A stretch of DNA of 58,458 nucleotides from contig JBMTEY010000001.1 of the NCBI GenBank assembly GCA_049433545.1, positions 1 to 58,458 on the forward strand, given 5' to 3'. Numbering within the stretch: position 1 is the stretch's first letter; each line of letters starts with the position of its first letter. A model generated the notes under the pieces. The model was not told the origin of the DNA. It was given only the letters and a program-made list of their open reading frames with translations, and did no database searches. The position numbers and the translations under genes are program-made. Positions 17,400 through 58,458 of this stretch are shown one piece after another. Source of the stretch: Burkholderiales bacterium. GTDB lineage: Bacteria > Pseudomonadota > Gammaproteobacteria > Burkholderiales > SG8-41.

Positions 17400-17559
17400 G
17401 TCGTCGCCGCCATGCCGCGTTGACAGCGCACGACCGTTCTTACAGAATCGCCTGCGCTATCACGGGGGCGTTGGCAGACTCCCCGGTTCCAGACGCTCCG
17501 CGTCCAAGTGCTGCCTTCGTGTGCTGTTGGCGCCGATGCGCCAACGCGAAGGAGACCTG

Positions 17560-25794: not shown

Positions 25795-27024
25795 CTAGCC
25801 ACGCCCGGCGCTGTCCACCCGATCGATCACGGCCCGCGGAATCAGGCTCAGCTTCACCAGAGGCTTCAGTGATTCATCGCTGCTCTGCTTGCAGAACTCG
25901 CGGATCGCAAGGAATGCCCGTGCCGCCGCCGTGTCGTTCCAGAACCACTGGTCGATGGCCTTCGCCGCGAGATTGCCGGGCTGCGCCGCGGCAGCCTCGA
26001 AATAGTACGCCTTGACGTCGTCGCAGGCGCGCTTCACCGCGACCCCGGCGCTCATGCCGGCGACGACGGGCAGTACGGGCGCATCGTCGAGATAAGCCAG
26101 CACGTGATTCACTGCGTCGTCCACCGTCGCGCCGAACACGCCCACGGTGGTGCGGCCGCGCCGTTTGCGCGCCAGGTCATACCATGGAGCCAGTTGCGCA
26201 ACCTCGTCGCGTAGGGCCTGGGCCAGTCCGCCCGCGCCGGTTTTGGCCGCGGCAAAGCTCACCGGGCAGGCAAATCCGGAATCAGCGGATGCGGCATCCG
26301 GCGCATCCTCCGGAAAATCCTCCAGCACCGGGCCTGATTTTTTTTCGAACAGGGCCAGCAGGCTGCGCAGCACCCTGCGCTGGAAGTCCGCTTCATTCGG
26401 GGAACCGAAGGGACGGCCGAGCATGAACGGCACCCACAACGCGCGCGACGGTTTGATCGCCGCGGTCTGCTCACGGATCAGGCTGATCTGCGCCGTCGCC
26501 ACGCCTTCGCGCTCGAGGTAGTGTCCGAGTGCGCCCACGGCGCACGTGCAGTTGGGTCAGACCGGTGTCAGCAATACCGCATCCACCTTGTCCTTTTTCA
26601 GCAGCGCCGCGAGCTCGCGGGCCTTGGCCTCGAGGGCTCGGACCGGCGCCGCGCCCATGAAAGCATAGTGATAGTCCGACACCGATCCCACCACGCCTTC
26701 AGCCTGCAGTTCTCGCAGGCGGTCAAGCGGAAACACCACGTTGACGTCTTCCTGGAAGCCGCTGCGGTCGAAGTTCACCGAGCTGTGGCTCATGATCAGG
26801 TCGGCGTGCGGCGTATCGCCAGGGATCACGCGGTAATCCGCCGCGCCCGGCGGAAACGGCCGGTCTCCGCGCACGTGCACCCCGGAGGTGGTGATGATCG
26901 CCACCCGGCGCTCGCGCAGCGGCGGCCCGGGCACGAACGGCGTCGCGCCGAAATCCGGCAGGTCGCGGATCTTGTCGAGATGGTGCTGCCGCTCAAATTC
27001 CGGAAGATCGCTCAATCGCGCCAT
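25795..27024 (-). CDS. GrdB/PrdB-family reductase selenoprotein-B homologue. One 409-residue frame with Sec (UGA) at codon 156 (comp. 26557-26559)
   Basis: ORF-track pieces 26557-27024 and 25795-26538 are in the same frame and separated only by one TGA. Read-through gives ...DKVDAVLLTPV-U-PNCTCAVGALGHYLEREGVATAQISLIRE... The N-terminal part (VAIITTSGVHVRGDRPF...DYRVIPGD...VVFPLDRLREL) looks GrdB/PrdB-like. A hairpin follows the UGA. Confidence 0.8.
26529..26559 (-). promoter_or_regulatory. UGA plus candidate bacterial SECIS hairpin (GrdB/PrdB-like gene)
   Basis: Minus strand: UGA, then 11 nt (CCCAACUGCAC), then a perfect 7-bp stem GUGCGCC / GGCGCAC with a GUG loop (26529-26545). Confidence 0.7.
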
Positions 27025-27052: not shown

Positions 27053-27667
27053 TCAGCGCTGATGCTTGCCCAAGTTCCAGCCGCTTTTCGCCAGGTGTTT
27101 CTCGCCGACGTGGATAGGCTCCTCCTCCAGCGGCGTCGCCATGGTGTCGTTCCAGCGGTTGAGGAAACCGAAGTTTGCTATGACTGCCACGATTTCCACG
27201 ATCTGCCCTTCGCTCCAGTGCTTCTTGAGTTCGGCGAACATCTCGTCTGTAACCGCATTGGGCTGTGCCGCGCCGGCAATCGCAACTTCCAGTGCCGCAC
27301 GTTCCGCCTCGGAAAACAATGAACTGGTGCGAAATTCCCAGACAGCCTCGAGTTTTTCTGCTTCAACGCCCAGCCGGAGCGCCGCCCCGGCAGTGTGCGC
27401 CATTCAGTAATGGCAACCGTGTGCACGGCTCGCGACGTGGGCCAGCATGCGTTTGAACGCCACCGTCACTTCACCCTGCGGATCCCATACCGCAGCAGCG
27501 AGCTGGGCCATAGCCAGAACCAGTTTGGGTTTGCGTTGCATGATCAGCATGCTGTTCGGCACGAAACCCAGCGTTCGCGTGTAGGTCTTGAACGCCTCCT
27601 GCAGTTCCGGTACGGCATCCTGCGGCAGGGGCGCAAGCCGCGGATCGGGTCGGTCATTTTGTTTCAT
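27053..27667 (-). CDS. AhpD/carboxymuconolactone-decarboxylase-like peroxidase-related selenoprotein. 204 residues with Sec (UGA) at codon 88 (comp. 27404-27406)
   Basis: ORF-track pieces 27404-27739 and 27053-27403 are in frame across a single TGA. Read-through gives HVASRAHGCHY-U-MAHTAG, which aligns with EVASNAAGCRYCTAHNAE of the Cys paralogue at 28786-29382. The similarity runs on both sides of the TGA. ATG 27667 is preceded by GGAGGA. Confidence 0.85.
27373..27406 (-). promoter_or_regulatory. UGA plus candidate SECIS hairpin (AhpD-like gene)
   Basis: Minus strand: UGA, then 12 nt (AUGGCGCACACU), then stem GCCGGGG / CUCCGGC (7 bp, one G-U pair) with loop CGGCG (27373-27391). Confidence 0.6.
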
Positions 27668-50277: not shown

Positions 50278-50739
50278 ATGGGCAGCAATGATCTCATCTG
50301 GAAACCCAACGTCACGGTAGCCGCAGTCGTCGAACGCGAAGGGCAATTCCTGCGGGTCGAGGAAGAAACGGCCGCAGGTGTGCGCTACAACCAGCCCGCC
50401 GGCCACCTGGAGCCTGAAGAGTCGCTGCTCGACGCCGTGGTCCGCGAAACCCTTGAGGAAACCGCATGGGGGTTCACGCCGACGGCCCTGATCGGCGTCT
50501 ACCAACACCGGCATCCCGGCGACGACGTAACCTACCTGCGCTTCGCCTTCACCGGCACCCTTGCCGATCACCAGCCGCAACGCCGGTTGGACGACGGCAT
50601 CCTGCGTGCGCTGTGGATGCCGGTCACCGAAGTCCGCGCCTGCAAAAAGCTGCACCGCAGCCCCCTGCTGATGCAATGCGTCGATGACCATCTGGCCGGC
50701 CGGCGTTATCCGCTGGACCTGATCCGGCACCACGCCTGA
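50278..50739 (+). CDS. NUDIX hydrolase
   Basis: Nudix box [28 protein letters not shown] overlap with mnmA. Confidence 0.85.
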
Positions 50740-51893
50740 TGTCTGCCCGACAGAAAATCGTGGTCGGCATGTCGGGCGGCGTCGACTCCTCCGTCGCCGC
50801 GCTGCTGCTGAAGCAGCAGGGCCATGATGTCATCGGCCTGTTCATGAAAAACTGGGAAGATGACGATACCGACGAGAATTGCACTTCGCGCCAGGACCTG
50901 ATCGACGCCGTCGCGGTGGCCGACCGCATCGGCATCGAGATCGAAGCCGTCAATTTCAGCGCCGAGTACAAGGAACGCGTTTTCAGCGAGTTCCTCAGCG
51001 AATATCGCGCCGGCCGCACGCCCAATCCGGATGTGTTGTGCAATGCCGAAATCAAGTTCCGGGCCTTCCTCGACCATGCGCTGAGCCTCGGCGCCGACCG
51101 CATCGCCACCGGGCACTACGCGCAGGTGCGCGAGCGCGACGGCCTGCACCAGCTGCTGAAGGCCGAGGACGGCACCAAGGACCAGAGTTACTTCCTCTAC
51201 CGCCTGAACCAGCAGCAGCTGGCGAAGACCCTGTTTCCGCTTGGCGCTCTCTACAAGCGTGACGTACGCGACATCGCGCGCCGCGAAGGCCTGCCCAACC
51301 ACGACAAGAAGGATTCGACCGGGATCTGTTTCATCGGTGAACGCCCGTTCCGGGAATTCCTCAACCGTTACCTGCCGGCGAACCCGGGCGACATCGTCAC
51401 GCCAGAGGGGGTCAAGATCGGCAAACACATGGGCCTGATGTTCTACACGCTGGGCCAGCGCCAGGGCCTGGGCATCGGCGGCACGCGCGGCGGCGACGGT
51501 GATGCCTGGTATGTCGCGGACAAGGACATGCGCGGCAACAAGCTGGTCGTGGTGCAGGGACACGACCATCCGCGGCTGCTGTCCGACCAGTTGACCGCGG
51601 TCAATCTGAACTGGATCAGCGGCGAGGCGCCGCGCACGCACTGGGTTTACGGCGCCAAGACGCGTTACCGCCAGCAGGATGCCGCCTGCTCGCTGTCGTC
51701 GGCAAGCGGGGAAAACTGCGTGGTCGAGTTTGCGGAGAACCAGTGGGCGGTGACGCCCGGACAATCGGTGGTGATCTACGAAAGCCGCGTCTGCATCGGC
51801 GGCGGCATCATCAAATCGGCACGCCAGGCGCCGCCTGCCGCGCAGCTGGAAACCGGCTGCCCGCCGGATGCCGTCAGCGGCGGTGCGCGCTAA
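50739..51893 (+). CDS. mnmA: tRNA 2-thiouridine(34) synthase
   Basis: [34 protein letters not shown] (PP-loop) and ...KDQSYFLY... Confidence 0.93.
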
Positions 51894-52502
51894 TCAGGAC
51901 GGCGCGGTATCGCGGAACGACTGCCGCTGCGCGAGTTTCTCGGCGAGCCGCGCCAGGTTGGGATGGCTGCGCCGCCACGGCTGGTCGGGCAGGCGCAGGT
52001 CGAGGAAACCCAGGCAGCAGCCGACGGCGATGTCCGCCAGCGTGAAAAAATCCCCCGCGCACCACGGCTTCGCAGCCAGTTCGTCGGCCAGCGCCTGCAA
52101 CGCGCGATCGATCTTGCCCTGCTGACGCGCAATCCACTCCAGCGACTGCTGCGATTCGTCGCGGCGCCGTTCCACGAAAATCGCCACGCCCGCATCCGTG
52201 CAGCCGTCGGCCAGCGCCTCCCAGCGCCGCACCTGGATACGCGGGCGTTTTTCTTCGGGGATCAGGCGGTTGCCCGGGCTCGCGTTGTCGATGTATTCGA
52301 CGATCACGCGCGAATCGAACAGCGTGCTTTCATCATCCAGCACCAGTACCGGGATTTTCCCTAGCGGATTCAATTGCGCAACAGTGCTTGAAGGCGTGTT
52401 CGGCGCATCGACGACGAACTCGTGTTCGAGGCGCTTTTCAATCAAGGCAATGCGCGCCTTGCGGGTATAGGGACTCGTCGGCGTCCCGATCAGCTTCATC
52501 AT
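51894..52502 (-). CDS. Glutathione S-transferase family protein
   Basis: MMKLIGTPTSPYTRKARIALIEKRLEHEFV...LNPLGKIPVLVLDDESTLFDSRVIVEYI (GST N-domain). Only the last 202 codons of ORF-track entry 51894-53420 are used. Confidence 0.82.
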   Translation of the reverse strand: MMKLIGTPTSPYTRKARIALIEKRLEHEFVVDAPNTPSSTVAQLNPLGKIPVLVLDDESTLFDSRVIVEYIDNASPGNRLIPEEKRPRIQVRRWEALADGCTDAGVAIFVERRRDESQQSLEWIARQQGKIDRALQALADELAAKPWCAGDFFTLADIAVGCCLGFLDLRLPDQPWRRSHPNLARLAEKLAQRQSFRDTAPS

Positions 52503-52625
52503 GTGGATTGCTTGGAGGATTGCGGAATAAAAAGCGCGCGGATTATAGCACCGCCATCCTTGACGCAAGACGCCACCGAACGTACGCTTGGCGCTCCTCC
52601 CCAACCGCCTGCAAAGAGGTCGCAC

Positions 52626-53396
52626 ATGGGCGCCACCGAACAGTTCGTGCTCTTTACCCAACCCGGGTGAAGTAGCTGTCTCCGGGCGAAAGAGTTTCTT
52701 TCGCGCAAAAAAATCGATTTCGTCGCCATCGACGTGCTGAACGATCCCGCCGGCCGTGAACGCCTGCTCAAATTCGGCGTGCGCAACGTACCGGTGGTTG
52801 CCCGCGGCGACCAGTTCGTGTTCGGACAGAACCTGGAAGACGTCGCCGAGTTCGTCGGCCTCCAGGGCACCGGCCACAAACCGCTGCCGCCTGAAGAACT
52901 GATCCGCAGATGGGTGCTGGTGCTGCGCGCCGCACAGCGTTTCATGCGGCAGATGCCCGACGGCAAACTGAATGAGCTGGTCATCGACAACCGTGACCGC
53001 TCGATCCGGTTGATGGGCCATCATGTGTTCCGCATCGGCGAGGCGTACCTGGAATCGGTCGAAAGCGGCGTGGAATACGCCGTGCAGCTCGCCAATGTGC
53101 CGCCGAAAGACGGCACCTTCACCAGCGGCGATGAAATCGCGCGTTACGGCGACACCGTCATCGCACGCCTCGAGAACTGGTGGAACAAGCTCGAAGACAA
53201 ATCCTGCCAGCAGAAGATCAAGACCTTCTTCGGCATGCAGCCCATCCACATGCTCTACGAACGCTCGACCTGGCACAGCGCGCAGCACGTACGGCAACTC
53301 GCCGCGGTGCTCGAACGCTTCGGCATAACCCCTGACGGAAAACTCACCGCGGAAGATCTGGCCGGTTTGCCTCTGCCCGAGCGGCTTTGGGAATAA
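52626..53396 (+). CDS. Glutaredoxin-like (UxxC) / DinB-superfamily fusion selenoprotein. 256 residues with Sec (UGA) at codon 15 (52668-52670)
   Basis: My translation across the TGA, in the frame of ORF 52734-53396, gives MGATEQFVLFTQPG-U-SSCLRAKEFLSRKKIDFVAIDVLNDPAGRERLLKFGVRNVPVV. This is a Grx fold with U at the first CxxC position. It is followed by a DinB-like His-rich helical domain (GHHVFRIGE...TWHSAQHVRQL). AGAGG RBS. Confidence 0.8.
52668..52704 (+). promoter_or_regulatory. UGA plus candidate SECIS hairpin (Grx-DinB gene)
   Basis: UGA, then 15 nt, then a perfect 7-bp stem GCGAAAG / CUUUCGC with loop AGUUU (52686-52704). Confidence 0.6.
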
Positions 53397-53425: not shown

Positions 53426-53454
53426 TCTACCTCTGCATCTGGGGTGGATTTTTT
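53426..53454 (+). terminator. Rho-independent terminator after the Grx-DinB selenoprotein gene
   Basis: ucuaccuc / ggggugga form an 8-bp stem (two G-U pairs) with a 7-nt loop, followed by TTTTTT. Confidence 0.6.
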
Positions 53455-53480
53455 GCCGCGCGGCAGGCATGCGCTACACT
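53453..53480 (+). promoter_or_regulatory. Candidate promoter for selA-selB
   Basis: TTGCCG (53453-53458), a 16-nt spacer, then TACACT (53475-53480). Confidence 0.35.
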
Positions 53481-53576
53481 GCGTCTTCGTTATTCCAAGC
53501 CGCAATTTTCCGCAGCAAACCCCGCACTGATCTGCAGCCCGATGACTCCGATGCCACGCCGCATGGCCACGCCGCC

Positions 53577-54980
53577 ATGGTGAATCCCGCTGAAGCCGCG
53601 CGTCGCGCGTTGCCTTCGGTCGATCGCCTGCTCGGCAGTAGCGCGGTGGCGGACCTCATCACGACCTACGGCCGTACCCGCGTAACCGCAGTGCTGCGCG
53701 ATGCGCTCGACGCCGAGCGCGCAAGGCTGGCGCACCCTGATGCCGCCGCCTGGAACGAAACCACTTTCCTGAAAACCTATGCCGCACTGCTGCGAGATTC
53801 CGTCGCCCCCTCGCTGAAACCGGTGTTCAACCTCACCGGCACCGTGCTGCACACCAACCTCGGCCGCGCGGTGATGCCGCAGAGCGCCGCCGCCGCGGTG
53901 ATGGCGGCGATGACCAACCCGGTGAACCTCGAATTCGATCTCGCTACCGGTACCCGCGGCGAACGCGACAGCCATGTCGAACGCCGCCTGATCCAGCTCA
54001 CCGGCGGCGAGAAGGCGGTGGCCGTCAACAACAACGCCGCGGCGGTCTATCTCGCTCTGAACACGCTGGCGCTGAAACGCGAAGTGCTGGTGTCGCGCGG
54101 CGAACTGATCGAAATCGGCGGCGCCTTCCGCATCCCCGACATCATGTCACGCGCCGGAGTGAAACTGGTCGAAGTCGGCACCACCAACCGCACCCACCTC
54201 AAGGACTATGCCGAGGCGATCACGCCGCGCACCGCCGCGATCATGAAGGTGCACACCAGCAATTACGTGGTGCAGGGATTCACCGCGGCAGTGCCCGAGC
54301 CGGAACTGGCGAAACTCGCGCATGAACACGATCTGCCGTTCATCGTCGACCTCGGCAGCGGCACGCTGATCGACCTCGAGCACTACGGCCTACCGCACGA
54401 GCCGACGCCGCGCGAAGCACTCGCCAACGGCGCAGACGTCGTCACCTTCAGCGGCGACAAGCTGCTCGGCGGCCCGCAGGCCGGCCTGCTGACCGGTCGC
54501 CGCGACCTGATGGCGCGCATCGCCAAAAACCCGATGAAACGCGCGCTACGCCTCGACAAGCTGACGCTGGCTGCGCTCGACGCCGTGCTGCGGCTCTACC
54601 TGCACCCCGAACGCCTGCATGAGGAACTGCCTGCACTGCGCTGGCTGACACGCACCCCGGAAGACATGGCGGCACAGGCCGCGCGCCTGCAGCCGGCACT
54701 GGCAGCGGCACTGGGGGAACAGTGGAAAGTCGAGACCGTTGACTGCAAATCGCAGATCGGCAGCGGCGCGCTGCCGGTCGACTCGCTGCCGGGCAAGGCC
54801 CTCGCCGTCAGCCCCGCCGTGAAAAAAGGCAACCTCAACAAGCTCGCCGCCGCCTTTCGCGACCTGCCGCTGCCGGTGATCGGCCACATCCGCGACGGCG
54901 CGCTGGTGTTCGACCTGCGCTGCCTGGACCGCGAGGACGAATTTGCGGCGCAACTGCAACAGCTGAAGATCCCGAAATGA
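53577..54980 (+). CDS. selA: L-seryl-tRNA(Sec) selenium transferase
   Basis: LPSVDRLLGS...NLTGTVLHTNLGRA...NNNAAAVYLAL...GGAFRIPDIM...FSGDKLLGGPQAG (PLP Lys). I prefer the start at 53577. The ORF-track ATG at 53469 would lie upstream of the candidate -10 box. Confidence 0.92.
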   Translation: MVNPAEAARRALPSVDRLLGSSAVADLITTYGRTRVTAVLRDALDAERARLAHPDAAAWNETTFLKTYAALLRDSVAPSLKPVFNLTGTVLHTNLGRAVMPQSAAAAVMAAMTNPVNLEFDLATGTRGERDSHVERRLIQLTGGEKAVAVNNNAAAVYLALNTLALKREVLVSRGELIEIGGAFRIPDIMSRAGVKLVEVGTTNRTHLKDYAEAITPRTAAIMKVHTSNYVVQGFTAAVPEPELAKLAHEHDLPFIVDLGSGTLIDLEHYGLPHEPTPREALANGADVVTFSGDKLLGGPQAGLLTGRRDLMARIAKNPMKRALRLDKLTLAALDAVLRLYLHPERLHEELPALRWLTRTPEDMAAQAARLQPALAAALGEQWKVETVDCKSQIGSGALPVDSLPGKALAVSPAVKKGNLNKLAAAFRDLPLPVIGHIRDGALVFDLRCLDREDEFAAQLQQLKIPK

Positions 54981-56995
54981 TCATCGCCACCGCGGGTCAC
55001 ATCGACCACGGCAAGACGCTGCTGGTCAAAACCCTGACCGGCACCGACACCGACCGCCTGCCCGAGGAAAAGGCGCGCGGCATCTCGATCGACCTCGGCT
55101 TCGCCTACCTGCCGCTGGACGGCGGCGGCCTGATCGGTTTTGTCGACGTCCCGGGCCACGAACGCTTCATCCGCAACATGCTCGCCGGCGTGTCGGGCAT
55201 CGATTATGCGCTGCTGGTGGTCGCCGCGGACGACGGCGTAATGCCGCAGACCGTCGAACACCTGCAGATCCTCGACCTGCTGCATATCCGCCGTGGAGCG
55301 GCAGTCATTACAAAAATCGACCGTGTCGATGCCGCGCGCGTCGAGCAGGTCAGCGCCCAGGTGCGTGCACTGCTGGCGCCGACGCGGCTCGCCGATGTCG
55401 CGATCCACCCGGTGTCTGCGGTCAGCGGCGCCGGCATGGCCGAACTGAAGACAGTGCTGCTGCGCGAAGCTGCGGCGCAGAACCAGCGCAGCGCCGAAGG
55501 ACAGCACCTGCGTTACGCCATCGACCGGGCGTTCAGCATCGCCGGCAGCGGCACCGTAGTCACCGGCACGGTGTTCAATGGCAACGTAAGAACCGGCGAC
55601 AAGCTGGTGATTTCACCCGCGGGACGCGAAGTGCGCGTGCGCAGCATCCAGATCCACGGCAAAGCCGCGGACCAGGCGCGCGCCGGCGAACGCTGCGCGC
55701 TGAACCTGACCGGCGCCGACGTCGAATCGGTGCGCCGGGGCGACTGGGTAATGGCTGCGGCGATCCACCGACCGACGCAGAAACTCGACGTGCGGCTGAG
55801 CGTGCTGCAGGCCGAGGCACATCCGCTGAAGCACTGGACGCCGGTGCATCTGCATCTCGCCACCGCCGACGTCACCGCGCGCGTGTCGCTGCGCCGCGGT
55901 GAGGCGCTGGCTCCGGGCAAGGACATCATCGCGCAGCTGGCGCTCGACGAACCGGTATCCGCGCTGCACGGCGACCGTTTCATCCTGCGTGACCAGTCTT
56001 CGACGCGCACCGTCGGCGGCGGCACCATCATTGATCCCGCCCCGCCCGCGGCACGGCGCAGCAAGGCGCGCGACGCCGTGCTCGCCGCGCTGGAGTCCGC
56101 GGACGCCACCAACGCGCTCACCGCGCTGAGCGCCGGCGGCAAACCGGTAGACCTCGCGCACTTTGAAGCGGTCTTCAACCTGCTGCCCGAAGTCGCCGCC
56201 GCGGAATACGCGCGCGCCGACCTCCTGCCGCTGGGCAAGGACCGCCGCATCGCCATCACCGGCACGCGCCTGGCCGCCGTCCACGAAGCCGCCGTCAAAC
56301 AGCTGCGCGCCTTCCACCAGGCGCAGCCACAGGCGACGGGCTTGGAAATCGAAACCCTGCGCGCGACGCTGGCACCTGAACTCGACGGCGACGCCTTCGG
56401 CCATGCGCTGCGCCTGCTCGCCGACAAACGCACGATCGAAATCCACAGTTCGCTCGCGCGTATTCCCGGCCACGACAGCACCGCCAACAGCGCCGATACG
56501 CGGATGTGGGAAACCGTGCAGCCGGTGCTGCTGGCGGCCGGCTTCAATCCGCCGCCGCTGAAGGAACTGGCGCCGCTGCTGAAAATCAAGGATGCGCTGC
56601 TCAAGGATTTTCTGTATCGCCAGACGAAGGCCGGCAATCTCTACCGCGTTGGCGCCGAAAGGTTTTACCTCAAAAACACCATGGCCGTGCTGGCCGCGAC
56701 AGCGCAAGCAGTCTGCGCAAAACAGCCGAGCGGCCAGTTCACCGCGGCACAGTACCGCGACGCCACCGGCATAGGCCGCACGCTGGCGATCGAGATTCTC
56801 GAAACGCTGGACTCACTGACCGTCACCCAGCGCATCGGTGACGCGCGCAAGATGCGCAAGGACTTCGCGCCCATACTCGGCGCCGCCGATCCGGCGCCAC
56901 CGCCACCGCCGGGTGCTGCAGCCAAGGCACAGTCGCAGAAGCCGGCGGCGCACAAACCGCAGCAACGCCCCCCTTTCCGCAACAAACGTTATTGA
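54977..56995 (+). CDS. selB: Selenocysteine-specific translation elongation factor
   Basis: [44 protein letters not shown]...DVPGHERFI...TKID, plus winged-helix C-terminal domains. ATGA overlap with selA. It carries an unusual Pro/Lys/Gln-rich tail of about 40 aa. Confidence 0.93.
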
Positions 56996-57005
56996 AAGAG
57001 CAATC

Positions 57006-57914
57006 ATGGCTACTACCGCATTTGACGTCATAGTCATCGGCGAAGGCATCGCCGGACTCACCGCCGCCGGCAAGCTGGCCGCGCAAGGCATCAGCACCGC
57101 CACCTTTGAAGAACAACTCTTCGGCGGTCTCGTGCTCAATGTGAATGAACTCGATCCGGCGCCCGCCGGCGGAGAAGCCGGCGGCGCCGCCTTCGCCTCC
57201 GAACTGACCCAGGCCAACGCCGATGCCGGCGTCACCAGCATCCAGGAACCGGTGACCGCGATCGCCGCCGCCGACGGCGGCTTCACGGTGACCACCGCCG
57301 GCGGCAGCTACCGCGCACGCCAGGTCGTCGTCGCCAGCGGTGCAAAACTGAAAACGCTGGGCGTACCCGGCGAAGCCGATTTCGAAGGCCGCGGCGTGTC
57401 GAAGTGCGCGGACTGCGACGGGCCGATGTTCCAGAACGAAACGGTCGCCGTGGTCGGCGGCGGCGATTCCGCGCTGCAGGAAGCGCTGGTGCTGGCACAG
57501 TACTGCGGCAAGGTGCTGCTGCTCCATCGCGGTACGGCATTCCGCGCGCAGAAACATTTCATAGACCATGTCGCCGCCAACCCGAAAATCGAAGTGCGCT
57601 TCGGCGTCACTGTGGAAGCCGTGCTCGGCGGCAACATGGTGGAAAAGCTGCGCATCCACAACGGCAAAGGCAGCGAGGAAATCCCCTGCGCCGGCCTGTT
57701 CGCCTACATAGGGCTGGATCCCAATGCCTCATTCGTGCCGGACACCGTCAAACGTGACGCCACGGGCCGCCTGGTCACCAGTGACGCCCTGGAAACCGCG
57801 CTGCCCGGACTGTGGGCGGTCGGCGCGGTGCGCAGCGGCTGCGGCGGCAGTCTCGCCGATGCGATGGCCGAGGCAAAACGCGCTGCCGACGGTATCGCGG
57901 CGCGCCTGAAATAA
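57006..57914 (+). CDS. Thioredoxin-reductase-like NAD(P)/FAD-dependent oxidoreductase
   Basis: DVIVIGEGIAGLTAA (FAD), the redox-active CADC in GVSKCADCDGPMF, and VAVVGGGDSALQEAL (NADPH). It begins 10 nt after selB. Confidence 0.85.
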   Translation: MATTAFDVIVIGEGIAGLTAAGKLAAQGISTATFEEQLFGGLVLNVNELDPAPAGGEAGGAAFASELTQANADAGVTSIQEPVTAIAAADGGFTVTTAGGSYRARQVVVASGAKLKTLGVPGEADFEGRGVSKCADCDGPMFQNETVAVVGGGDSALQEALVLAQYCGKVLLLHRGTAFRAQKHFIDHVAANPKIEVRFGVTVEAVLGGNMVEKLRIHNGKGSEEIPCAGLFAYIGLDPNASFVPDTVKRDATGRLVTSDALETALPGLWAVGAVRSGCGGSLADAMAEAKRAADGIAARLK

Positions 57915-57915
57915 A

Positions 57916-58458
57916 TCAGGGCTTGCGCACCGCGCAGGCCATCAGCCGTTCCCAGCCTTCGCGACCAAGCCGGCGCAGCGTCTCGATGTTGTCCCGGTAA
58001 ATGCGTTCGGTGTCGGGATGCGCGACGACGGCGCGCTCGACGCTTGATTCACGCAGCAGGTGCAGCGTCGGATACGGCGAACGATTTGTGCAATTGGTAA
58101 TGTCGTCGGTTTCGGTATCGGCAAACTGGTACTGCGGATGGAAACTCGCCACCTGCAGCACGCCTTCCAGCCCGAGGTCGGCGACCAGAGCGTCGGCGAC
58201 CTCGAGGAAATCGTTGAAGTCGAGAAAATCAGCCATCACCTGCGGATGGATCAGCAGCGTGGTTTCGGTCTGCTGTTCGTCGGCAGCAGCCAGCACCTGC
58301 AATTCATCCGCCAGTACCTGCAACAGCGCTTCCGGCGTGGTCGCGTCGCTGACCGCGTAGCGGATGCGGTCAGCGGCGTATACTGCGCCCGCGAACGGGC
58401 ACAGGTTGAGGCCGATCACCGCCTTCTCCAGCCAGTTGCGGGTCGCGGCAATCACTTC
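57916..58458 (-). CDS. DUF1415-domain protein (N-terminus probably just beyond the window end)
   Basis: WLEKAVIGLNLCPFA...VASFHPQYQF...NCTNRSPYPTLHLLRE is the DUF1415 pattern. The frame is open to the window edge. Confidence 0.75.
   Translation of the reverse strand, partial: EVIAATRNWLEKAVIGLNLCPFAGAVYAADRIRYAVSDATTPEALLQVLADELQVLAAADEQQTETTLLIHPQVMADFLDFNDFLEVADALVADLGLEGVLQVASFHPQYQFADTETDDITNCTNRSPYPTLHLLRESSVERAVVAHPDTERIYRDNIETLRRLGREGWERLMACAVRKP

Follow-up and report, generated by a model that had tools for sequence, protein, structure and literature searches.

A candidate unannotated selenoprotein gene encoding a predicted glutaredoxin–DinB fusion beside selA-selB in a Burkholderiales bacterium

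Selenoproteins with a glutaredoxin (Grx) fold are already known. The selenoprotein glutaredoxin Grx1 of Clostridium (Alkaliphilus) oremlandii, solved as its Cys variant cGrx1 (PDB 7c10), is a single-domain protein of about 85 residues from an anaerobic Firmicute, with Sec as the first residue of its UxxC motif. It is listed in the selenoprotein inventory as an experimentally verified family, 'Glutaredoxin (Grx), PF00462, UxxC', and is reportedly linked to the reduction of selenoprotein MsrA. Among the Grx-like thioredoxins YruB/Cp9, BC3987 and NrdH, which carry a T-x3-C-x2-C signature, the gene for the Cp9 redoxin lies between genes for a thioredoxin reductase (TrxR)-like protein (cp34) and a peroxiredoxin, and that TrxR-like protein and Grx homologue form a peroxiredoxin-reducing system (PMC3720550 and its reference 29). 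The DinB/YfiT ('S-transferase-like') superfamily, which includes BstA, mycothiol S-transferase, YfiT and DR0053, has metal-dependent thiol S-transferases among its members (PMC10950700). Known members are stand-alone homodimers without a redox domain, and none is reported as a selenoprotein. Precedents for a DinB metal domain fused to a second domain in a thiol- or selenol-dependent enzyme are the mycothiol-dependent maleylpyruvate isomerase (MDMPI, PDB 2nsf) and the sulfoxide/selenoxide synthases EgtB and OvsA (PDB 8u41).

The window analysed here is a stretch of 58,458 nucleotides from a Burkholderiales bacterium (assembly GCA_049433545.1, contig JBMTEY010000001.1, positions 1 to 58,458). 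A first-pass annotation, made from the sequence alone, had proposed that a TGA codon near position 52,668 is read as selenocysteine in a Grx-like domain fused to a DinB-superfamily domain. The sequence features on which that proposal rested were all confirmed. An ATG at 52626-52628, with AGAGG 6 nt upstream, opens a frame that runs through the TGA at codon 15 and remains open to the stop TAA, 256 codons in all. The ORF usually called, 52734-53396, starts at a GTG inside the Grx domain, while a mechanically listed ORF, 52422-52670, ends at the TGA in the same frame. The features of the locus are as follows.

51894-52502, minus strand: divergent glutathione S-transferase (GST) gene, YibF-type
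52560-52588, plus strand: promoter-like site, TTGACG (52560-52565), a 17-nt spacer and TACGCT (52583-52588)
52615-52619, plus strand: Shine-Dalgarno-like AGAGG
52626-53396, plus strand: full coding sequence of the predicted Sec-Grx-like/DinB fusion protein (256 codons including U15; stop TAA 53394-53396)
52647-52820, plus strand: Grx-like thioredoxin-fold domain (residues 8-65 by Pfam; the predicted fold extends to about residue 80)
52668-52670, plus strand: UGA predicted to be read as selenocysteine (U15), first position of the U-S-S-C redox motif
52677-52679, plus strand: predicted resolving cysteine C18 (TGT)
52686-52704, plus strand: predicted bacterial SECIS (bSECIS) hairpin, with a family-conserved core at 52687-52693 / 52697-52703 and apical loop GUU at 52694-52696
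52926-53300, plus strand: predicted DinB/YfiT-like four-helix-bundle domain (residues 101-225 by Pfam), with His triad codons H133 (53022-53024), H217 (53274-53276) and H221 (53286-53288)
53426-53454, plus strand: terminator-like hairpin plus T-run between the fusion gene and selA
53469-54980, plus strand: selA, the true start of which is probably the internal ATG at 53577
54977-56995, plus strand: selB, overlapping selA by 4 nt
57006-57914, plus strand: TrxR-like flavoprotein gene with a CADC redox motif, a candidate reductant of the Sec-Grx-like domain

The TGA was found at this codon in 79 of 79 genome loci and 72 of 80 metagenome loci, the other 8 having TGC or TGT. Hence, all 151 Sec-form loci, which are the closest relatives (down to 56% identity), carry TGA. 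The upstream peptide F-x-L-F-T-Q-P-G is conserved, with synonymous changes in its codons, and an ATG lies 10-14 codons upstream of the TGA, with a conserved -35-like box further upstream. More than 40 remoter full-length homologues, together with the 8 metagenome loci, have QPGC[ST]SC at this position, and C15, C18, the cis-Pro P56, H217 and H221 are invariant in the alignment. In a tree, 149 Sec forms made one clade with no Cys form inside it. A pseudogene or a sequencing error was rejected because the TGA is present in 151 independent assemblies. Neither of two conditions set beforehand as refuting the proposal was fulfilled, as orthologues do not begin downstream of the TGA and Cys-form homologues with Cys at exactly this column are plentiful.

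A further possibility is that the UGA is a real stop, in which case the locus would make a 14-residue leader peptide and a separate DinB-family protein starting at GTG 52734 or another internal start, as every public annotation has it. Gene callers indeed produce products of 205-238 residues, named 'DinB family protein' or 'glutaredoxin domain-containing protein'. However, the called starts differ from genome to genome and cut through a Grx fold that is complete only if the UGA is read, giving an N-terminal peptide MGATEQFVLFTQPG-U-SSCLR. The 36 codons between the UGA and GTG 52734, and the 8 codons before the UGA, evolve as coding sequence, the Cys-form homologues are continuous through this position, and a SECIS-type hairpin and selA-selB lie alongside. 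This reading is therefore very unlikely.

The hairpin GCGAAAG/CUUUCGC starts at 52686, 15 nt after the TGA, and was extended by ViennaRNA to 8 bp with loop GUU (52686-52693 / 52697-52704) and -8.6 kcal/mol on its own. It was compared with the published bSECIS criteria, namely an apical loop of 3-9 nt with G in its first two positions, a stem of 4-16 bp, a distance of 16-37 nt from the UGA and an MFE of -7.5 kcal/mol or lower (PMC13188914). The observed loop GUU, stem of 8 bp in the window (7 bp conserved), spacing of 23 nt and -8.6 kcal/mol meet all four, though in orthologues lacking the G19-C37 pair the 7-bp core alone gives -5.2 kcal/mol. The 71-nt context is not more stable than shuffled sequences (z = -0.86), so thermodynamics alone would not single it out, and a search of Rfam at gathering thresholds found no RNA family at the site, giving no support either way. 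RNAalifold found no covariation, as none of the 7 pairs has a double change and the stem is invariant apart from two A-to-G changes that keep a G-U pair. A synonymous-site test was used instead. Across 62 orthologues, the six hairpin codons have a summed synonymous-codon entropy of 0.24 bit, whereas the next-lowest non-overlapping six-codon stretch of the gene has 3.77 bit, and none of 161 other conserved codons falls below 0.15 bit. It is conservation, of the TGA and of these codons, that puts the observation beyond chance. The invariant 17-nt SECIS core (CGAAAGAGUUUCUUUCG) is a convenient search key.

Upstream of the gene, the promoter-like site is the only match to TTGACG-N17-TANNNT in the window, and CTTGACG is conserved in at least 90% of aligned orthologous intergenic regions, although a general consensus scan did not list the site because its -10 is weak. 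A purine-rich AAAGA-GG block is present in most orthologues. The terminator-like hairpin rests on the consensus scan only, and the roles of both regulatory sites are inferred from sequence.

With U read as C, residues 8-65 matched Pfam Glutaredoxin (PF00462) with 50.2 bits (E = 2.9e-13) against a cut-off of 22.9, and this match spans the TGA. The C-terminal part scored 21.4 bits against Pfam DinB_2 (PF12867), just under the gathering cut-off of 24.8, but precomputed Pfam hits list PF12867 for many close homologues. AlphaFold models of the closest Cys-form homologue (P0124, 48% identical) and of window residues 16-256 have pLDDT 94-96 and pTM 0.90-0.91. In these models, the U15-S-S-C18 position precedes helix 1, and Foldseek placed the C-terminal domain in the DinB fold. 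The His triad aligns with the His residues of DinB-like 3di5, H133 being at least 90% conserved.

Profile searches identified the neighbouring genes as GST (NF007682, 185.8 bits against a cut-off of 181), selA (TIGR00474, 580 bits, aligned from residue 46), selB (TIGR00475, 435 bits) and a TrxR-like gene (TIGR01292, 223 bits, below the equivalog cut-off of 343). The selA orthologue in locus L005, one of the loci compared, starts at MVNPAAAARR. selA-selB lie downstream in 41 of 50 Sec-form loci with enough flank (82%), and the TrxR-like gene directly follows selB in 22 of 25. In Sec-form loci the TrxR-like gene tracks selB rather than the Grx-DinB gene. However, in two Cys-form loci without sel genes (L086 and L164) a TrxR-family gene lies directly downstream of Grx-DinB, though the TrxR-like genes next to the Sec and Cys forms are only 31-34% identical, which does not establish orthology. 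The divergent GST, which the first-pass annotation treated as a partner of the gene, is present in only 58 of 113 Sec-form loci. A tRNA-Sec was not found in the window, and selC and selD were not seen there, for selD without a dedicated search.

Recoding of the UGA other than as Sec, by near-cognate or suppressor read-through to Trp or Cys that the hairpin merely stimulates, was also considered. Nothing specific favours it beyond the lack of covariation in the hairpin and of a visible selC and selD in the window. Against it, the position is the catalytic Cys of a CxxC motif, the classic Sec/Cys pair, the hairpin fits the SelB-type bSECIS model including a G in the apical loop, selA and selB are adjacent in 82% of loci with enough flank, and two further genes with Sec-type motifs are in the same window. 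This alternative is likewise very unlikely.

The interpretation given in the first-pass annotation, a Sec-Grx fused to a DinB-type domain, is supported, and identification of the gene as a selenoprotein gene, in which SelB guided by the hairpin inserts selenocysteine at UGA 52668, is almost certain, though inferred from sequence and not from selenium detected in the protein. Its proposed selenium/thiol redox module with GST, selAB and the TrxR-like reductase remains inference. What the analysis establishes is coding continuity through the UGA, Sec/Cys pairing with remoter homologues, an RNA-level constraint on the hairpin, the two folds as predicted models, and synteny with selA-selB. Metal binding, glutathione-dependent disulfide reductase activity, thiol S-transferase activity and the mechanism as a whole are inferred. 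The position next to selA-selB most simply reflects co-inheritance of a selenoprotein gene with its decoding machinery.

The mechanism can be proposed only tentatively, and is somewhat less likely than not. The DinB domain would use a metal at His133/His217/His221 to bind and activate a low-molecular-weight thiol, probably glutathione in this lineage, or a thiol conjugate, as DinB-superfamily S-transferases do. The fused U-x-x-C centre would attack the resulting disulfide or thioether-linked sulfur to form a Se-S bond, which would be resolved by C18. The oxidised centre would then be re-reduced by the locus-encoded TrxR-like flavoprotein with NAD(P)H, as Cp34 reduces Cp9, with glutathione as the alternative reductant. 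The net result would be a GST-like reductive or thiol-transfer enzyme in which a DinB bundle replaces the GST helical domain. Against it, the gene neighbourhoods of the Cys forms are heterogeneous catabolic islands.

A role in selenium handling, such as reduction of selenite or selenodiglutathione, or transfer of selenide to SelD, together with the TrxR-like enzyme, would explain the position beside selA-selB. The synteny with selA-selB-TrxR-like is tight, and the in vivo selenium donor to SelD is still unresolved, with thioredoxin and glutathione systems as candidates (PMC13188914). However, Cys-form homologues sit in unrelated catabolic neighbourhoods without sel genes, nine of 50 Sec-form loci with enough flank lack selAB nearby (the one such locus inspected showed unrelated genes), and lineage-specific insertions of up to 5 kb separate the gene from selA. 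Selenoprotein genes also commonly neighbour sel genes without acting on selenium. This role is unlikely.

It is also possible, but again unlikely, that the two domains act independently, with the Grx-like domain either a general disulfide reductase tethered to a DinB protein of unrelated function or a redox switch regulating the DinB domain. No direct evidence links the two sites, and one Cys-form member carries a third domain, MmgE/PrpD, which shows modular shuffling. Against this, the fusion is kept across homologues down to about 30% identity with a fixed linker length, the high pTM (0.90) indicates a defined inter-domain packing, and the catalytic residues of both domains are co-conserved.

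A more far-reaching possibility is not excluded but is improbable. The selenolate of U15 and the His-triad metal would form one composite active site, a selenium-metal or selenium-thiol centre in a fold never before seen in a selenoenzyme. With its own TrxR-like reductase, this would catalyse a reductive C-S or S-S cleavage, or an isomerisation, of glutathione conjugates in uncultured Burkholderiales. It would then be a new catalytic class of selenoenzyme and a main reason why these lineages keep the Sec machinery.

The gene would add a well-supported, abundant and phylogenetically coherent selenoprotein subfamily that is common in uncultured freshwater and soil Burkholderiales. All 151 Sec-form loci are from environmental assemblies, and all carriers are metagenome-assembled genomes, labelled mostly Burkholderiales/Betaproteobacteria, with a few Binatia. 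The subfamily appears in truncated form in every database entry seen, and no NCBIfam model fits. A profile built from these sequences would correct hundreds of gene calls. It appears to be the first case of a DinB-superfamily domain inside a selenoprotein. A 2026 list of 119 selenoprotein families has no DinB entry, and literature searches found no report of a DinB-like selenoprotein, although it cannot be excluded that BSepDB lists these genes under 'Grx'. The statement in the first-pass annotation that such proteins had been reported in metagenome surveys could not be confirmed. The Sec forms mark the catalytic residue and point to a likely reductase partner, which makes testable a Grx-DinB family in which no member, Sec or Cys, has a known substrate or function.

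Compared with the known systems, Grx1 of C. oremlandii is the best sequence match among solved structures (E = 4e-17) and matches the predicted fold at TM 0.87, but it has no DinB domain, while the window protein has USSC and lacks the classical Grx GG-x-DD glutathione-binding motif. Of the other closest solved relatives of the Grx-like domain, BC3987 (3zit) and NrdH, BC3987 matches with TM 0.9 and rmsd 1.3 Å. The signature of these redoxins is present as T11-x3-U15-x2-C18, the best NCBIfam hit is GlrX_YruB, and a TrxR-like gene lies in this locus too. However, the scores are far below the family cut-offs (YruB 42.3 against 88.55, Uxx_star 41.6 against 66, NrdH 34 against 85.75 bits), so the domain resembles these families, UXX-star included, but is not a member of any. 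Its active site is USSC rather than CPxC or CVQC, the domain is fused rather than free-standing, and the acceptor would be the fused DinB domain and not a peroxiredoxin or ribonucleotide reductase.

The predicted DinB domain shares the four-helix bundle with DR0053 (6iz2; TM 0.83-0.85, rmsd about 3 Å), other Foldseek hits including YfiT (1rxq), 2f22, 3di5, 2nsf and 5wk0, and has the three His residues of the metal site in the same helices. Sequence similarity is marginal, with a PDB profile E of about 3e-3 in addition to the sub-threshold Pfam score, and the family-specific motifs E-R-x2-W-H-x2-Q-H-x-R-Q and the C-terminal G-L-P-x-P-E-x2-W are not known to have a described counterpart. The maleylpyruvate isomerase and the EgtB/OvsA synthases appear among the Foldseek hits, but their DinB domain is N-terminal, their partner domains are unrelated to thioredoxin folds, and TM normalised to the target is only 0.24-0.45. 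The overall layout, an N-terminal thioredoxin fold with a catalytic Cys at the start of helix 1 followed by an all-helical domain, is that of the Cys-type glutathione transferases (Omega, CLIC and Xi classes), and whole-chain Foldseek hits are to GSTs and CLICs. However, the superposition is poor (rmsd 11-18 Å, TM about 0.3), Pfam gave no GST_C hit and the helical domain is a different fold, so that the resemblance is one of analogy and not of membership.

The sequence is as described in the first-pass annotation, and its observation of a reading frame continuing through an in-frame TGA held in full. An ATG at 52626, preceded by AGAGG (52615-52619), opens a frame that reads MGATEQFVLFTQPG, meets TGA at 52668-52670 and continues as SSCLRAKEFLSRKKIDFVAIDV without another stop to TAA 53394-53396, giving 256 codons. 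In the mechanical ORF list, one ORF (52422-52670) ends at this TGA, and the next starts at GTG 52734 in the same frame. The segment GCGAAAG-AGUUU-CUUUCGC lies 15 nt after the TGA and is drawn by ViennaRNA as an 8-bp stem (52686-52693 / 52697-52704) with loop GUU, at -8.6 kcal/mol alone and -12.3 in the 49-nt context. However, the 71-nt context is not more stable than shuffled sequence (z = -0.86), and thermodynamics alone would therefore not make the case.

With U written as C, the protein matches Pfam Glutaredoxin over residues 8-65 (50.2 bits against a cut-off of 22.9), and the TGA falls on the first Cys of CxxC, whereas no NCBIfam model reaches its cut-off. A search of about 5.8 billion clustered proteins gave 3,774 homologues. 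Almost all of the 120 best are 205-238 residues long, the eight that were read begin at different internal codons, and the few that carry a name are called 'DinB family protein' or 'glutaredoxin domain-containing protein', which is the pattern expected if gene callers stop at a Sec codon.

The DNA of 79 loci from GTDB species genomes, 56-93% identical at protein level, was retrieved, and all 79 have TGA at the homologous codon, preceded by a conserved F-x-L-F-T-Q-P-G and an ATG 10-14 codons upstream. A second scan, of JGI metagenome contigs, seeded with a Cys-form alignment, returned 72 TGA forms and 8 TGC or TGT forms among the 80 best loci. All carriers are metagenome-assembled genomes. In 62 unique gapless orthologues, the eight codons before the TGA keep their residues while using up to five synonymous codons, which is the signature of translation. 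An exhaustive HMMER search of 1.84 billion cluster representatives found 847 relatives, of which 42 full-length sequences were read (247-276 residues, plus one 721-residue fusion). The 41 that were aligned are 30-48% identical to the window protein and carry QPGC[ST]SC at this position, and in the alignment C15 (= U), C18, P56, G203, R213, H217, H221, R223 and Q224 are invariant. Hence, neither of the conditions set beforehand as arguing against the first-pass annotation was found, namely orthologues that start downstream of the TGA and lack the Grx-like N-terminus, or the absence of any Cys-form homologue with Cys at this position.

Across 72 unique orthologous sequences, the 17 nt CGAAAGAGUUUCUUUCG (window 52687-52703) are invariant, apart from two A-to-G changes that keep a G-U pair and one G-to-A change. 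These nucleotides cover codons +6 to +11 after the UGA (A/T-K-E-F-L-S), and their synonymous-codon entropy sums to 0.24 bit, as compared with 3.77 bit for the next-lowest non-overlapping six-codon stretch of the gene. The mean outside the hairpin is 1.1 bit per codon, and none of 161 other conserved codons is below 0.15 bit. TTT and CTT are fixed in the hairpin, whereas other Phe and Leu codons of this gene vary freely among synonymous codons. This shows selection on the RNA itself, though there are no compensatory changes and the pairing as such is therefore not proven by covariation. The element satisfies every constraint of the published bacterial SECIS model (PMC13188914), which are an apical loop of 3-9 nt with G in its first two positions (here GUU), an upper stem of 4-16 bp (here 7-8), 16-37 nt between the UGA and the loop (here 23), and an MFE of -7.5 kcal/mol or lower (here -8.6). 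In the orthologues that lack the outer G-C pair (27 of 73 unique sequences), the core alone gives -5.2 kcal/mol.

Two AlphaFold2 models were made, one of the nearest Cys-form homologue, P0124 (pLDDT 94.4, pTM 0.90), and the other of window residues 16-256 (pLDDT 95.8, pTM 0.91), and in both a thioredoxin fold followed by a helical bundle is predicted. Foldseek against the PDB matches each predicted domain separately. The C-terminal domain matches the DinB/YfiT proteins DR0053 (6iz2, TM 0.83-0.85), YfiT (1rxq), 2p1a, 3di5, 2f22 and mycothiol-dependent maleylpyruvate isomerase (2nsf), and more weakly BstA (5wk0) and OvsA (8u41). The N-terminal domain matches BC3987 (3zit, TM 0.9, rmsd 1.3 Å), cGrx1 (7c10) and NrdH. 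No solved structure matches the whole chain, as whole-chain hits are GSTs and CLICs at rmsd 11-18 Å, which share only the layout of a thioredoxin fold plus a helical domain.

By sequence profile, the best solved relative of the N-domain is cGrx1 (E = 4e-17), which, as judged by the entry name, appears to be the Cys variant of the Clostridium oremlandii selenoprotein Grx1. The N-domain carries the T-x3-C-x2-C signature of Grx and NrdH redoxins, as T11-x3-U15-x2-C18 (PMC3720550). The DinB domain reaches 3di5 and 6iz2 only at E of about 3e-3 to 8e-3, but the alignment places H133, H217 and H221 on the DinB His residues. As Pfam DinB_2 scores 21.4 bits against a cut-off of 24.8, membership of the superfamily rests on the predicted fold and the His triad, not on the Pfam threshold.

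The genetic context of the fusion gene was examined, and the neighbouring genes were confirmed. The features around the gene are as follows.

50739-51893: mnmA
51894-52502: divergent YibF-type GST
52560-52588: promoter-like TTGACG-N17-TACGCT, the -35 element of which is conserved among orthologues
53426-53448: terminator-like hairpin
53469-54980: selA, the start of which is probably at 53577
54977-56995: selB, overlapping selA by 4 nt (54977-54980)
57006-57914: TrxR-like flavoprotein with a CADC motif, scoring 223 bits, below the TrxR equivalog cut-off of 343
57916-58455, minus strand: DUF1415 protein of unknown function (PF07209, E = 1.5e-70), converging on the TrxR-like gene and conserved at this position in several orthologous loci

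The mechanical selA ORF starts at 53469, but the TIGR00474 match begins at residue 46, and the orthologue in one of the orthologous loci, L005, starts at MVNPAAAARR. The true start is therefore probably ATG 53577, which leaves a 180-nt gap containing the terminator-like hairpin. The only Rfam family hit in the window is a chrB-b RNA motif at 17463-17514 on the plus strand (53.3 bits against a gathering score of 36.5).

Over the 151 Sec-form loci, selA or selB lies within 5.5 kb downstream in 41 of 50 loci with enough flank, the TrxR-like gene follows selB directly in 22 of 25, the divergent GST is present in 58 of 113, and mnmA lies upstream in 70 of 95. The gap between the fusion gene and selA varies from 0 to 5 kb, and in L005 it holds TctC-type binding-protein genes and other unrelated genes. 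In two more distant Sec-form genome loci, L073 and L074 (59-60% identity), selB follows the fusion gene directly with no selA hit in between, and the order of the sel genes is therefore not fixed. In a neighbour-joining tree, a simple method applied here to a biased sample, all 149 Sec forms make one clade with no Cys form inside it.

Given the synteny with sel genes, a role in selenium delivery to the Sec pathway is the main functional rival to a role in thiol chemistry. However, Cys-form homologues lie in heterogeneous catabolic islands with LysR or IclR regulators, TctC, CoA-transferases, amidohydrolases and a GST, and without sel genes, which weakens this alternative, and it is considered unlikely. 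In two of the Cys-form loci (L086 and L164), a TrxR-family gene follows directly on the same strand, its product being 31-34% identical to the window's TrxR-like protein. One Cys form (P0203, 721 aa, found on a single Logan contig) is a triple fusion of MmgE/PrpD (N- and C-terminal domains), Grx and DinB, a possible hint that the family acts on small organic acids or their thiol adducts, though only this one occurrence was found.

The window holds two more probable selenoprotein genes, both with Pfam support when U is read as C.

27053-27640, minus strand (TGA at about 27404-27406): CMD/AhpD-like gene with the motif C-H-Y-U
25795-27024, minus strand (TGA 26557-26559): probable GrdB-like gene with the motif U-P-N-C, directly downstream of the AhpD-like gene

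In the first, the frame of ORF 27053-27403 continues upstream through a TGA, giving ...SRAHGCHY-U-MAHTAGAAL, which is the CxxU motif of AhpD/CMD-like selenoproteins, and Pfam CMD matches across the TGA (E = 1.9e-10). In the second, ORF 26557-27024 ends ...DAVLLTPV-TGA and continues in frame as PNCTCAVGALGHYLEREG, a UxxC motif. The hairpin GUGCGCC-GUG-GGCGCAC starts 12 nt after this UGA, and Pfam GRDB matches just upstream of the TGA (E = 4.6e-11). The fusion protein would therefore not be the only client of selAB in this genome. selC and selD were not seen in the window.

The first-pass interpretation of the gene as encoding a Sec-containing Grx-like domain fused to a DinB-type domain is thus supported. 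The sequence analysis itself shows that the UGA is translated, that a Sec/Cys pair occupies the nucleophilic position of a Grx-like CxxC, that a SECIS-type RNA element is under selection, that a DinB bundle, as predicted, with an intact His triad is fused to the redox domain, and that the gene is inherited together with selA-selB. On this evidence, which is from sequence and predicted structures alone, identification as a selenoprotein is made with high confidence. What the enzyme does, including any metal binding, thiol transfer or reduction by the TrxR-like protein, is inferred by analogy. DinB-superfamily enzymes (BstA, MST) use the His-bound metal to bind and activate a low-molecular-weight thiol for S-transfer (PMC10950700). 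The gene for the YruB/Cp9-type redoxin lies between TrxR-like (cp34) and peroxiredoxin genes, and that TrxR-like protein and the Grx homologue form a peroxiredoxin-reducing system (PMC3720550, Fig. 6 legend and its reference 29). In the most economical model, which remains tentative, electrons would pass from NAD(P)H to the TrxR-like flavoprotein (CADC), then to U15/C18, and then to a thiol conjugate or mixed disulfide held at the DinB metal site. The enzyme would then be a functional analogue of Cys-type GSTs with a different helical domain.

Sec-containing glutaredoxin is an established family, and marine surveys list 'Grx' and 'Grx-like' UxxC selenoproteins (PMC1088965, PMC2398784). One of the Sec-form loci, L097 (AACY023306817.1), is a 1.4-kb contig that carries a nearly identical N-terminus (MGATEQFVLFTQPG*SSCLRAKEFLSRKKIDFVAIDVLNDPA) and the divergent GST, and the AACY prefix is probably that of the marine GOS/Sargasso project. 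If so, close relatives of the window organism were already in the data sets used for the classic selenoproteome surveys, and the Grx part may already have been counted there. Those papers describe domain fusions only for Prx, Prx-like and UGSC proteins. A 2026 inventory of 119 prokaryotic selenoprotein families contains no DinB entry (PMC13188914), and full-text searches for selenoproteins with DinB returned nothing relevant, the tables of BSepDB lying outside this comparison. The two-domain architecture, uncharacterised in both its Cys and Sec forms, is therefore considered undescribed, while the Sec redox domain that it contains is a known one.
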